A DNA stretch of 11,378 nt, taken from a virus (taxonomy: Duplodnaviria > Heunggongvirae > Uroviricota > Caudoviricetes). A program made the position numbers. Location: the IMG/VR virus record IMGVR_UViG_2681813225_000001, positions 1 to 11,378 of that record, one strand, 5' to 3'. This document shows positions 6,001 through 11,378 of this stretch, in pieces. How positions within the stretch are numbered: the stretch's first letter is position 1; each line of letters starts with the position of its first letter.

Positions 6001-9000
6001 TTGTGCATGGATGGTTCCAGTACAGAGCGTAATAATAAGGACATGAAAATGAAATGGTATGAACTGGCTAGATCCAGAATGAAAGAGCTCGGCATAACTC
6101 AAGAGAAGTTAGCCGAAGAGCTAGGTATGACGCAGGGTGGAATTGGACACTGGTTGCGCGGATCTCGTCATCCATCTCTTAGTGATATTGGTGTGGTGTT
6201 TAAATACCTTGGTATTGATAACATATCATTCAACCACGACGGGACATTTTCACCTGTTGGCGAATACTCATCGGCCCCAGTTAAAAAACAATATGAGTAC
6301 CCTGTTTTTTCTCATGTTCAGGCTGGGATGTTCTCTCCAGAACTCAGAACCTTTACCAAAGGTGATGCGGAGAGATTGGTAAGCACAACCAAAAAAGCCA
6401 GTGACTCTGCATTCTGGCTTGAGGTTGAAGGTAACTCAATGACCGCACCAACAGGTTCCAAACCTAGTTTTCCTGACGGGATGTTAATTCTGGTTGACCC
6501 TGAGCAAGCTGTTGAGCCCGGCGATTTCTGCATAGCCAGACTTGGTGGTGATGAATTTACCTTCAAGAAACTGATCAGGGATAGCGGTCAGGTGTTTCTA
6601 CAACCACTAAACCCGCAATATCCAATGATCCCATGCAATGAGAGTTGTTCCGTTGTGGGGAAAGTTATCGCCAGCCAATGGCCTGAAGAGACGTTTGGGT
6701 AAAGAGGATAGATGGAGTTTAATGGCCATGAGTATCAAGCGGTCAAAAAGAAGTTCATCTATTCATTGAAAGCATAAGGCCATCTGAGTATATCCGTAAT
6801 GATCTGGATATTGTCTATAACATCAATGACCGGACGATAGATATCGGTGAGCAGCGTCCTGTATGGCAGGGTGAGGCAGGTGAAAAAACGTCCTGCCATC
6901 AACAAGAATCAAGTGCATCCGCTCTCTGGACAGATGGAAAATTTATTGGATGCAAAAAGATATGAAATAACACCTGTATAGCACGGAGCTTTCTCTGACC
7001 GATGCACTTGAAGTTGTTAGGGCTGACCCAGCCTGCTGTTTCTTTAGGTAAGAGAAAAGAGATTTAGGAGATGAAAGGTCGCAGAGGTGCGGCCTTTTTT
7101 ATTGAGAGTGGATCTTGAACGGAAATTCTCAAGACTTGAGTCTTGCATGCAAATCAATTCCTGGATAAACTCGATCTGAGTCAATAACTTAGAGAGAGAG
7201 CAAATGGCAAAGTCAAACGTTAGCGTGCAGGCATTCAAGGACTTCCTTGAAGAGCTTATGTCGCTGAACATAATGAAGGAGGCCACCGCTCGAAATTTAA
7301 AAAACTCATCCGCTCGCCTCTTAACGGTAGTCCAAGAAGAGGAAATGGGTGATGTTACTCAGCTTGATGTGAATGAGCTTGCCGAGCGATACATCAACGC
7401 AACTGAGCCGAAGCCTAGCGACAGCAGCATTACTGCATATAAAAGCCGCATGGAAAGTGCAATCAAAAAGTTTGTAGCTTTCCAGTCTGGTGAAGAAATC
7501 CCATACACTCCGATTGACAAAGAATCCAGTGAGGAAAAAGATTTGACTGGCGAACCAACAAAAGTCGAAGGCAAGGCTAATGCACTTCATACCTATGATC
7601 TTCCAGTAGTTCTTCGACCTGAATCAGGGGTTACAGTAACGATTAAAGGCATTCCTAACGATATCACAAACGAAGAAGCCGAACGCATCTCTTCAATTCT
7701 GAAGGTTTACGTTCGGCCTCAATAATGCAAAAGCATTCAGCACAATGTCCAACTCCCCAGTCCGACATTGATGCTGTTTAACCAGAGCCTCCAAAAGGAG
7801 CCCTTGTTAAGGTACACAATATTTGCGATGTAACCTTAGCGCGTCTGGTACATTTTTTCAAGCGGTTGTAGGGCTGCCGCCAATATGAGAAAACACAGAT
7901 GTCTACATACAATTTGAATGACCAATTCGATCGAGAAGTTCATGTGAATGCCTATGAACGGATAAGGCATGGAAATCTTGAACATGTGTGTGAGCATTAT
8001 CGCTCAAGGCCACACCGCTAATCATCAACCCGGCCTCCATGCCGGGTTTTCTTTTCCTCTCGCCCAAAAAAACACATAACCAATTGTATTTATTGGAAAA
8101 TAAATAGATACAACTCACTAAACAACGCAATTCTGATCTCTCCTTACATCGCCGAGGCAATACACCCACGCTAAAAAACAATACTATTAAATACAAAGCG
8201 TTGTAAAAAAACGCCCCATTTTAGAACAAATTGTATTGACCAAGTTAAGTACATATCGTACTATTTAACCATCAGCAGGACGCTGGAAGCCAAATGGAAC
8301 AGACTGGCAGGCTCTTTAAACAACGTCGACTCTCGACTACGTGGCTGAAAAGCCAGATCACCCAACCACATAAGCTGTGGGATGCAATGCCGAAGCAACC
8401 GTCTCAGGAGGAGCTTCGAGATTGCATCGCCAAAGTTTATTCGGGAGGAATCTATGTCCAGAAAAACAGAATTTAAAGGCACCGCAGCTTCTCGCCGTAG
8501 AGCTCGTCGCGCAAACCTGCAAAGTCAGGAGGCGATTAGCTCCGACAAACTACACAGGCCAACCCCATCACGAGTGGTCTTACAATGCAAACGCAAACCA
8601 GCAATGAGAGCAGAAGTAATAACACTGACAACGTTGACCAGAAAATATGAAGGCTCAACTTGTCTTCCAAATGTAGCTCTTTACGCGGCAGGCTACCGTA
8701 AATCCAAACAACTGACAGCAAGATGACTTGTGTTGGTCGCCAGAAAATGAAATTAGGCAGCAAACCACTTATTTGAGGTGAGATATGACAAAATCATGGA
8801 GCGTACCTTTTCCTGAATCAGAAACTGAACATGATGGAATGCCTGTTTTCTGGAGATTCCAGGCGACAGTTGAAGAAGATGGGATAAAAATATTCGCACT
8901 TCAATATATAGCTTTTCATCAGACAGAGCATTATGCATGGTTGGTTCCTGCGCATTGGATTGTTAATTTTAAACCAGCACCAAATCAGTGGTTACAGGAA

Positions 9001-11378
9001 TGGAAACAAAGGAGAAATAGATATGCAATTAAGAAAGTAGCAAAAAATGCAGAAAGATCTTTTGCATTCCCAACGAAGAAACTTGCCATTGAAAGTTTAT
9101 TGCGCCGGAAGAAATACCATTTAATGAGAATCAAACAAGATTTGGCTGTTGTATCAACTCTTGTTGATGGTATGAAGAATATTGATACATCAACACCAGA
9201 TATTGAATATAACTTTGGACACAACCAAGAAACAGAAAATTGGGTATTTTATTAGTACGAATAAGCACTGTGTATTCATTCCAACGAGTGAATACACGGA
9301 GCAATGTCGCTCGTAACTAAACAGGAGCCGACTTGTTCTGATTATTGGAAATCTTCTTTGCCCTCCAATGTGAGGGCGATTTTTTATCTGTGAGGATATG
9401 AACAGATGTCAAACATCAAAAAATACATCATTGATTACGACTGGAAAGCATCAATAGAAATTGAAATCGACCATGACGTAATGACAGAGGAAAAACTTCA
9501 CCAGATTAATAATTTCTGGTCAGACTCTGAATACCGACTCAATAAACACGGCTCTGTATTAAATGCTGTATTAATCATGCTGGCGCAACATGCTCTGCTT
9601 ATAGCAATTTCAAGCGACTTAAATGCATATGGTGTTGTGTGTGAGTTCGACTGGAATGATGGAAATGGTCAGGAAGGATGGCCTTCAATGGATGGTAGCG
9701 AAGGAATAAGAATTACCGATATCGATACATCAGGAATATTTGATTCAGATGATATGACTATCAAGGCCGCCTGAGTGCGGCTTTACCGCATACCAATAAC
9801 GCTTCACTCGAGGCGTTTTTCGTTATGTATAAATAAGGAGCACACCATGCAATATGCCATTGCAGGGTGGCCTGTTGCTGGCTGCCCTTCCGAATCTTTA
9901 CTTGAACGAATCACCCGTAAATTACGTGACGGATGGAAACGCCTTATCGACATACCTAATCAGCCAGGAGTCCCAAAGAATGGATCAAACACTTATGGCT
10001 ATCCAGACTAAATTCACTATCGCCACTTTTATTGGCGATGAAAAGATGTTTCGTGAAGCTGTCGACGCTTATAAAAAATGGATATTAATGCTGAAACTGA
10101 GATCAAGCAAAAGCATTCACTAACCCCATTTCCTGTTTTCCTAATCAGCCTGGCATTTCGCGGGCGATATTTTCACAGCCATTTTCAGGAGTTCAGCCAT
10201 GAACGCTTATTACATTCAGGATCGTCTTGAGGCTCAGAGCTGGGCGCGTCACTACCAGCAGATCGCCCGTGAAGAGAAAGAGGCAGAACTGGCAGACGAC
10301 ATGGAAAAAGGCCTGCCCCAGCACCTGTTTGAATCGCTATGCATCGATCATTTGCAACGCCACGGGGCCAGCAAAAAAGCCATTACCCGTGCGTTTGATG
10401 ACGATGTTGAGTTTCAGGAGCGCATGGCAGAACACATCCGGTACATGGTTGAAACCATTGCTCACCATCAGGTTGATATTGATTCAGAGGTATAAAACGG
10501 ATGAGTACAGCACTCGCAACGCTGGCTGGGAAGCTGGCTGAACGTGTCGGCATGGATTCTGTCGACCCACAGGAACTGATCACCACTCTTCGCCAGACGG
10601 CATTTAAAGGCGATGCCAGCGATGCGCAGTTCATCGCATTGTTGATCGTCGCCAACCAGTACGGCCTTAATCCGTGGACGAAAGAAATTTACGCCTTCCC
10701 TGACAAGCAGAACGGCATCGTTCCGGTGGTGGGCGTTGATGGCTGGTCCCGTATCATCAATGAAAACCAGCAGTTTGATGGCATGGACTTTGAGCAGGAC
10801 AATGAATCCTGTACATGCCGGATTTACCGCAAGGACCGTAATCATCCGATCTGCGTTACCGAATGGATGGATGAATGCCGCCGCGAACCATTCAAAACCC
10901 GCGAAGGCAGAGAAATCACCGGGCCGTGGCAGTCGCATCCCAAACGGATGTTACGGCATAAAGCCATGATTCAGTGTGCCCGTCTGGCCTTCGGATTTGC
11001 TGGTATCTATGACAATGATGAAGCCGAGCGCATTGTCGAAAATACTGCATACACTGCAGAACGTCAGCCAGAACGCGACATCACTCCGGTTAACGATGAA
11101 ACCATGCAGGAGATTAACACTCTGCTGATCGCCCTGGATAAAACATGGGATGACGACTTATTGCCGCTCTGTTCCCAGATATTTCGCCGCGACATTCGCG
11201 CATCGTCAGAACTGACACAGGCCGAAGCAGTGAAAGCTCTTGGATTCCTGAAACAAAAAGCCTCTGAACAGAAGGTGGCTGCATGACACCGGACATTATC
11301 CTGCAGCGTACCGGGATCGACGTGAGAGCTGTCGAACAGGGGGATGATGCGTGGCACAAATTACGGCTCGGCGTCATC

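Follow-up and report, generated by a model that had tools for sequence, protein, structure and literature searches.

What does the gene that directly follows the antiterminator gene N contribute to a phage whose neighbouring early-left genes are nearly those of lambda? The question is posed by a stretch of DNA of 11,378 nt (referred to here as the window) from the Caudoviricetes record IMGVR_UViG_2681813225_000001 in IMG/VR, where a preliminary description had drawn attention to an AT-rich open reading frame (ORF) for 156 amino acids at 8785–9255. As judged from sequence comparisons, this is a translated and conserved accessory gene for a soluble protein. We tentatively suggest, as a reading that may well prove wrong, that its product is a cytoplasmic basic protein, made from a transcript shared with N and initiated at pL, that acts in counter-defence.

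Identity and conservation of the gene

The ORF begins with ATG on the plus strand and has the good ribosome-binding site that had been ascribed to it, with the Shine–Dalgarno sequence GAGGTG at 8775–8780, 4 nt 5' of the start codon, in a start region that is unstructured (fold z = +0.66).

8785–9255, plus strand: gene for the 156-residue protein (HK97 gp45, 933W L0079, PHROG 1636); soluble, with a basic core at residues 74–120

The AT-rich composition is also borne out, as the G+C content is 35.7%, below the 46.7% of the window, the 47.3% of N and the 52% of bet, and the window-wide minimum (0.337 at 9001–9300, in 300-nt windows) falls over the ORF. The protein has an isoelectric point (pI) of 9.07, and is acidic at both ends with a strongly basic segment at residues 74–120, where 16 of the 47 residues are Lys or Arg (pI 11.4). 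A hydrophobic segment is absent, the highest 19-residue Kyte–Doolittle value (KD19) being 0.56, compared with 1.73 for SieB.

The gene is the same as HK97 gp45 (AAF31125/NP_037731), 933W L0079 and Phi24B vb_24B_11c, and is present as hypothetical proteins in BP-4795, Min27 and Stx2-86, with a DNA identity of 98.4–99.9% over this group. It matches the PHROG 1636 profile, which carries the label "unknown function", from end to end (E-value (E) 2.7e-112, residues 1–156 on positions 1–156 of 156). At the DNA level, 98.4–100% identity is found to many phage records, including Shiga toxin (Stx) phage Stx2a 981509 (100%), BP-4795, 933W, Min27, Phi24B, Stx2 phage I and HK97 (98.4% over the exchangeable unit defined below). 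Protein identity is complete (100%) for 933W as well as for many Stx1a and Stx2a phages, and amounts to 99.4% for H-19B. The sequence is not new, having been deposited many times as "hypothetical protein". Its distribution is patchy, with occurrences in 598 of 5426 complete Escherichia coli genomes, at up to four copies per genome, and in 88 of 50,697 phage records. The AT-rich composition, the patchy distribution and the stand-alone nature of its relatives indicate an accessory gene.

A comparison with an 85%-identical homologue gives a ratio of non-synonymous to synonymous substitution rates (dN/dS) of 0.17, which implies purifying selection. Against homologues of 43–72% identity the synonymous sites are saturated, and the proportion of non-synonymous differences (pN) is 0.18–0.40. 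Over 22 Enterobacterales homologues, 40 alignment columns are invariant. An untranslated ORF, arisen by chance or through decay, could account for the low G+C content and the absence of annotation, with nothing else in its favour. It would not be expected to show the low dN/dS value, the combination of saturated synonymous and 18–25% non-synonymous change in the remoter homologues, full-length homologues down to about 20% identity across Gammaproteobacteria phages, a strong ribosome-binding site, or the high confidence of the structure prediction described below (mean predicted local distance difference test score, pLDDT, of 95.6). The pattern of conservation already refutes this alternative, to which we attach practically no credence, and the low dN/dS together with the conserved full-length homologues mark the ORF as a genuine gene.

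An exchangeable unit between boundary sequences

The preliminary description had assigned the gene to an early-left-operon slot. That this slot is variable, and is the one occupied by ral and sieB in lambda, is seen directly when its content is compared across lambdoid phages. Pairwise homology to phages with other genes in the slot stops at 8777–8787 and resumes at 9264–9299. The point where it stops takes in the Shine–Dalgarno sequence, and in YYZ-2008, Sf6 and mEp043 also the ATG itself; in most of the compared phages homology resumes at 9264–9265, 8–9 nt past the stop codon. Because of these limits, the unit exchanged is close to the ORF alone. As delimited by these comparisons, it extends from codon 2 through the eighth nucleotide after the stop codon (8788–9263), an ORF-precise cassette for which the ribosome-binding site and ATG are supplied by the left boundary sequence.

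8724–8787, plus strand: left boundary sequence, with a 17-codon relic of an N C-terminus, the Shine–Dalgarno sequence and the ATG of the cassette
9265–9302, plus strand: right boundary sequence, a 14-bp hairpin without a T-run, common with lambda and entered as 'bsq4; boundary sequence' in the Sf6 record
9358–9386, plus strand: intrinsic terminator, homologous to tL2a of lambda; nearest terminator-like site found downstream of the pL-like promoter
9406–9774, plus strand: ea10 (DUF2528), the next gene of the operon, 99.2% identical to lambda Ea10

The left boundary sequence has matches of 96.9–100% in mEp043, mEp235, Sf6 and YYZ-2008, which carry other cassettes, and these matches end at 8777–8787. 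The C-terminus of lambda N matches at 8723–8773 (65% over 17 amino acids). In the HK97, 933W and Phi24B records the left junction falls within the N C-terminus, as in the window, and the C-terminal codons of N from 8661 are common to the N genes of HK97 and Phi24B. Position after N and both junctions are the same in these three phages as in the window, and we note no substantive difference between their genes and the one described here, all being annotated as hypothetical. A 17-codon ORF on the plus strand (8723–8776, MTCVGRQKMKLGSKPLI) has an ATGA overlap with the N stop codon and terminates within the Shine–Dalgarno sequence of the 156-residue gene. It has the appearance of a relic, retained as a boundary sequence for recombination, and through it the translation of N might also be coupled to that of the following gene.

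On the right side, inverted-repeat arms at 9265–9281 and 9286–9302 form a 14-bp hairpin (dG −21.7 kcal/mol, z −7.8). This hairpin is nearly unchanged in lambda, Sf6, YYZ-2008 and mEp235 whichever cassette precedes it, and may be an RNA processing site, a pause site or a recombination boundary. The terminator consists of a hairpin at 9358–9379 (dG −12.9, z −3.4) followed by TTTTTTAT; an identical hairpin occurs in lambda, and the Sf6 record has 'terminator; homology to phage lambda; tL2A'. Over the part of the window that starts at 9265, identity to lambda is 99.4%, in agreement with the near-identity earlier reported for the right flank. The inverted repeat and terminator that had been listed as following the gene are both real, but they belong to the flank shared with lambda and not to the gene, because they begin where lambda homology resumes and are also found 3' of ral in lambda, Sf6 and others.

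The contents of the slot in the phages compared are as follows.

lambda and PhiR11_1: sieB, orf28 and ral
Sf6: ral and gp34
HK544 and Sf101: ral
YYZ-2008 and the Sakai-type Stx1 phage: two small ORFs
mEp043: three small ORFs
mEp235: one ORF for 207 amino acids

The occupants other than ral and sieB all belong to PHROGs labelled as of unknown function. The same boundary sequences flank Sf6 gp34 (PHROG 3054), the 207-residue gene of mEp235 (PHROG 1965) and the 86-residue gene of YYZ-2008 (PHROG 2471), the last of which uses the same Shine–Dalgarno sequence and ATG as the 156-residue gene. No homologue of Ral or SieB was found in the whole HK97 genome. In phage phi296 (PV189400, 8542–9277, reverse strand), ral and the 156-residue gene occur in tandem. 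The order there is N, two small ORFs, ral and the 156-residue gene, each joined via hybrid boundary sequences, and the junction between the last two is a hybrid of the right and left boundaries after which the second gene starts with TTG, following a one-base deletion. This tandem implies that the slot can hold arrays of cassettes, and that the 156-residue gene is not a functional replacement for ral. From their arrangement, the two genes appear to be alternatives or additions in one accessory region, and not functional equivalents. Accessory cassettes between lambdoid boundary sequences are of a well-known kind; new here are the exact limits of the cassette, including a start site that cassettes have in common, the tandem of the gene with ral, the extension to a wider superfamily and the confident model of a fold for which there is no solved counterpart.

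Predicted expression with N

Upstream of the gene, the elements of an early-left operon can be recognised.

8236–8264, plus strand: pL-like sigma-70 promoter, TTGACC-17-TACTAT, from a consensus scan; drives the early-left operon
8311–8355, plus strand: nutL-like region, with a boxA-like GCTCTTTAAACAA at 8311–8323 and two small hairpins, read from the sequence
8325–8337 and 8342–8355 (TGGCT-GAAA-AGCCA), plus strand: candidate boxB hairpins
8454–8726, plus strand: N antiterminator gene, 90 amino acids (Pfam PF25694 N_peptide, E 3.4e-32); a longer ORF runs from 8382

The promoter probably sits between the cI-side terminator (8027–8048) and N, and the same consensus scan placed pL of lambda where expected. 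The region at 8311–8355 is presumably nutL-like, by resemblance to the boxA and boxB consensus of lambda and rrn. An ORF for 60 amino acids at 8294–8476 (plus strand, PHROG 3137), annotated in some phage records, overlaps this region and the start of N, and is probably no gene but an artefact of annotation.

A crude consensus and terminator scan found neither promoter-like nor terminator-like sites on the plus strand from 8264 to 9358, and in the interval 8264–8785 it gave no sigma-70-like site that could be a promoter of the 156-residue gene itself. The spacer between N and the gene is 58 nt long and unstructured, with no hairpin. Since the gene thus lies just past N, with the first terminator-like site downstream of it, it should be co-transcribed with N from pL, at a stage before antitermination is needed. 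It should be on once pL fires, upon infection or induction, and silent in the repressed prophage. The position is shared: in HK97, 933W, Phi24B and three metagenomic or genomic prophages, the gene either follows N immediately or is at most about 1 kb away from it.

This arrangement bears on whether the gene could be a prophage-expressed superinfection-exclusion or defence gene, analogous to SieB or Rex. The slot holds sieB in lambda, and the AT-rich composition is moron-like, both as such a gene might be expected to have. It would however be placed in the sense orientation inside a pL operon repressed by cI, with no promoter-like site of its own in the scan, and its product has no membrane segment and no meaningful match among the PADLOC defence models. 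Relatives are also found in phages that lack lysogeny genes in the stretches examined, and within the window an ORF for 173 amino acids next to cI (7204–7725) is the likelier lysogen-expressed accessory gene. We consider an exclusion function highly improbable.

A superfamily of phage proteins

A word-indexed search reached only Enterobacterales homologues of at least 55% identity, and an exhaustive profile search gave 87 representatives at E ≤1e-3. About 70 of the 87 are proteins of 130–165 amino acids with 18–27% identity, aligned over nearly the whole length. In the wider superfamily so obtained, which takes in PHROGs 13631, 25384 and 28215, all 76 members match PHROG 1636 and 66 of the 76 match PHROG 13631. 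Reciprocal tblastn searches agree with this, since the representative P0048 matches gp45 (E 1e-4, with 95% of its length aligned), and gp45 in turn retrieves Pantoea phage LIET2 (E 2e-5) and Vibrio phage PvVp04_M (E 3e-8). Domain fusions were not seen among the superfamily members, which all stand alone; the apparent long fusion proteins P0059 and P0081 were discarded as low-complexity false positives. By sequence the superfamily extends over Gammaproteobacteria phages, and by predicted structure to phages of Alpha- and Betaproteobacteria and Bacteroidota.

The superfamily motifs are distributed over the whole length of the protein, and comprise an aromatic-aromatic-R motif, G-h-x-h, E/Q-T, K-K/R-V-x-K...R-F-A-F-x-T-K-x-x-A, RK...L...L, and a C-terminal aromatic plus an acidic residue. 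In the 76-sequence alignment the conserved positions are the aromatic-aromatic-Arg at 22–24 (Arg24), Gly33, Glu/Gln46-Thr47, Lys83, Lys84 and Lys87, and further Ala94, Phe95, Ala101, Arg108 and Lys109, a heptad-like aliphatic stripe at 113–130, and the C-terminal aromatic residue followed by an acidic one. Position 92, which also belongs to this set, is Arg in most relatives and Ser in the 156-residue protein. Because position 46 is Gln in the E. coli protein, a role in binding is favoured at this site over acid catalysis.

Predicted structure

With the 76-sequence alignment, AlphaFold2 returned a model with a mean pLDDT of 95.6 and a predicted template modelling score (pTM) of 0.82. A model built from the close homologues only (pLDDT 59) was discarded. 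The predicted elements are listed here by residue.

1–18: ordered coil
19–30, 33–46 and 50–55: beta-strands
58–61 and 66–74: short helices
83–86: short strand
98–130: one long helix of 33 residues
131–156: ordered tail

The protein is thus predicted to be a single compact domain, in which three long beta-strands, two short helices, a basic beta-hairpin and the 33-residue helix are accompanied by acidic, ordered tails. No structural match to the predicted fold was found among PDB chains. A Foldseek search against predicted viral structures gave 12 matches at E <1e-3 with TM-scores of 0.44–0.77, all to uncharacterised proteins of phages, with Vibrio, Erwinia, Achromobacter, Delftia, Rhizobium, Sinorhizobium, Tenacibaculum and Cellulophaga as hosts. 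Because the matches are confined to such proteins, the fold appears to be phage-restricted in the libraries searched, and to have no solved member.

Family searches were similarly negative. Only noise resulted when the 156-residue protein was compared with Pfam, NCBIfam and PADLOC, and when all 76 superfamily members were run against Pfam with permissive thresholds; the best match among the PADLOC defence models, to Cas1_II (E 0.018, 12.4 bits), is at noise level. Neither a helix-turn-helix (HTH) nor any other known DNA-binding domain was detected in the family library scans. The RFAFxTKxxA hairpin and following helix had prompted a comparison with the AP2 and lambda Int arm-binding domains, for both of which hhalign was negative, and hhalign likewise gave a probability below 1% for homology to Sf6 gp34 or to the 207-residue protein of mEp235. 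The remote-homology and structure search proposed in the preliminary description has thus matched no characterised protein and no solved fold.

Genomic contexts of the relatives

No conserved neighbour genes were found across the superfamily contexts. A conserved partner gene was considered, as small upstream ORFs overlap many of the distant relatives by a few bases, and rejected because these ORFs are mutually unrelated. Close relatives lie just before xis and int in Pectobacterium, and also head an operon that includes a ParB-like gene. The relative in Vibrio phage PvVp04_M directly follows a cro-like HTH gene and precedes Rha, YopX and Nmad5. In Pseudomonas, Vibrio, Pantoea and Klebsiella phages, distant relatives are surrounded by early genes without names; others are situated near the integrase end of prophage early operons, and relatives also occur in several larger, apparently non-lambdoid phage genomes. 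Of 13 distant contexts, 6 have an orphan DNA methyltransferase gene within about 3 kb of the relative and in its operon, a raw count without a base rate in which some of the contexts are related phages. Nmad5 and TerB are seen in other contexts. Taken together, these surroundings have the flavour of a conflict or DNA-modification accessory region.

In Klebsiella phage phi_KPN_H2 (4656–5478), adjacent genes for YAcAr/SLOG- and NADAR-domain proteins occupy the second and third positions downstream of a distant relative, and are possibly counter-defence genes against ADP-ribosylation.

Some of these positions would also suit a nucleic-acid-binding regulator of phage development, active for example in transcription, antitermination, the lysis–lysogeny decision or excision. 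The gene follows N in lambdoid phages, lies between the cro-like HTH gene and Rha in PvVp04_M, and, in prophages of Pectobacterium and others, stands immediately before Exc/AlpA and integrase genes. The basic core of hairpin and helix is also conserved, in a protein under strong conservation overall. The lambdoid programme can however do without the gene, which is absent from lambda, Sf6, YYZ-2008 and the mEp phages, where unrelated genes take its place. Nor does a repeat or operator-like site travel with the cassette, the flanking hairpin being present also in phages without the gene, and the absence of an HTH or known DNA-binding domain together with the negative hhalign comparisons tells against the idea as well. 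A developmental regulator is on balance unlikely.

The early position is equally what a host-takeover factor in the manner of Kil or CIII would have, inhibiting a housekeeping host protein of division, replication, translation or proteolysis. The gene shares its operon with kil, cIII and gam and is expected to be transcribed early, relatives are found among early genes of the larger, apparently non-lambdoid phages, and the fold is seen in phages only. Evidence of toxicity or a link to any host pathway is lacking, however, and host takeover would by itself leave the methyltransferase, NADAR and SLOG neighbours unexplained. We regard this as quite improbable.

A proposed counter-defence role and comparison with known systems

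A close parallel in position is offered by lambda Ral, an established anti-restriction protein that acts on type I restriction-modification. Ral occupies the same boundary-flanked slot after N in lambda, Sf6, HK544 and Sf101, and it is likewise small, soluble and made from pL. It differs in having 66 instead of 156 amino acids and shows no sequence similarity: a tblastn search with Ral against the window gave only chance matches of 8–36 amino acids outside the ORF (best E 0.59). SieB, which occupies the same slot in lambda, is a hydrophobic protein encoded on the opposite strand in the lambda record, and the sequences are dissimilar, the sole weak match to the ORF (E 0.05) being out of frame and in the wrong orientation. 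The earlier impression that the gene resembles neither lambda ral nor sieB therefore holds. Another parallel is found in T7 Ocr and in ArdA, which are first expressed on entry and act against host restriction, and the role proposed for the 156-residue protein is analogous. Ocr and ArdA are strongly acidic DNA mimics, in contrast to the basic 156-residue protein, which in addition has no Pfam match.

In the counter-defence reading, the protein would be made with N from pL early on infection or induction. Its conserved basic surface would bind a polyanionic partner, which could be nucleic acid, a nucleic-acid-handling host enzyme or another acidic partner; this binding is proposed because the basic residues are conserved across the superfamily. 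The protein would thereby shield phage DNA, whether entering the cell or being replicated, from an immunity or nuclease system of the host, in a role distinct from the action of Ral on type I restriction-modification. The functional step is one that we infer. In its favour are the ral slot, early expression, the basic cytoplasmic protein and the neighbours of the relatives, which together make it plausible. The preliminary description had pointed to anti-restriction or superinfection exclusion as common functions of such slots. The first part of this idea, broadened to counter-defence, remains plausible by location and neighbours, but exclusion is unlikely because of the absence of a hydrophobic segment, the sense position in the pL operon, the missing promoter-like site and the occurrence of relatives in non-lambdoid phages.

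Several points weigh against counter-defence. Anti-defence genes often diversify rapidly, unlike the strongly conserved 156-residue protein (100% identity across many Stx phages, dN/dS 0.17). Location gives weak support, since the genes of early-left operons are diverse in kind, with kil, cIII and the recombination genes among them, and the methyltransferase association is subject to the reservation given above. Early expression itself depends on a terminator scan that may miss real terminators, as it found no terminator-like site in the N–ral interval of lambda, where tL1 lies, and the scan is blind to Rho-dependent termination between N and the 156-residue gene. No database record or experiment assigns a function; the family bears only the names "hypothetical" or "prophage protein" in the databases, and literature searches under the names, accession numbers and PHROG identifier of the gene gave nothing relevant. 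The 156-residue sequence is absent from the gene table of Silas et al. (bioRxiv 10.1101/2023.04.06.535777), who screened 200 accessory genes, some of them from ral-containing regions. In phages carrying the gene, a published application of DefenseFinder flagged only methyltransferases, Ral and Gam as anti-defence (PMC12502783).

Three candidate connections were set aside. The orf184 of Silas et al., located in one accessory region with ral, codes for another protein, which begins MEALVVERSEDGYW. The 'gp45' of the OLD preprint belongs to phage HK578 and is not HK97 gp45. A location in plasmid leading regions was rejected, because the 11 plasmid-database matches are prophage-like or misassigned records.

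A more far-reaching form of the counter-defence reading, which we hold to be doubtful, is that the 156-residue protein is the most widespread member of a structurally new, phage-only superfamily that neutralises host immunity by a mechanism unlike DNA mimicry or that of Ral. As an example of such a mechanism, the basic surface might occlude phage nucleic acid, or trap a defence nuclease or sensor.

Other features of the window

The 173-residue ORF (plus strand) is located in the interval from cI to the pL-like promoter, with the terminator-like hairpin at 8027–8048 downstream of it. It belongs to PHROG 2602 (unknown function) and has no Pfam match. Because it sits at the position of rexAB in lambda, it is a candidate for a lysogen-expressed gene. 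Downstream of ea10, a cIII thermoregulator element is matched at 9834–9892 (plus strand; Rfam RF01804, 88.5 bits), as expected upstream of cIII. On the minus strand, 1640–4033 encodes a DnaB-type replicative helicase of 797 amino acids, in which the Walker A loop is split by an intein of about 400 amino acids. The intein carries a LAGLIDADG_3 homing-endonuclease domain, and its first residue is Ala, not Cys or Ser; its removal would restore GMGKT in the helicase.

Significance

The gene adjoins N in the Shiga-toxin phages 933W, H-19B, Phi24B, BP-4795, Min27 and Stx2-86, in many further Stx1a and Stx2a phages, and in HK97. About one in nine complete E. coli genomes carries it, and over some 25 years of sequence records it has been assigned no function. 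Since the confident model matches nothing solved, any function found would annotate a whole phage superfamily. The ORF-precise cassettes with a shared ribosome-binding site and ATG, and the arrays of ral and gp45, provide a handle for listing further candidates from the slot. If the counter-defence reading is correct, the gene would add a new mechanism to the small set known for temperate coliphages. Being made with N, the protein would be among the very first phage proteins in the cell, and could influence the E. coli strains in which Stx phages establish themselves, with a possible bearing on the host range and spread of these phages.

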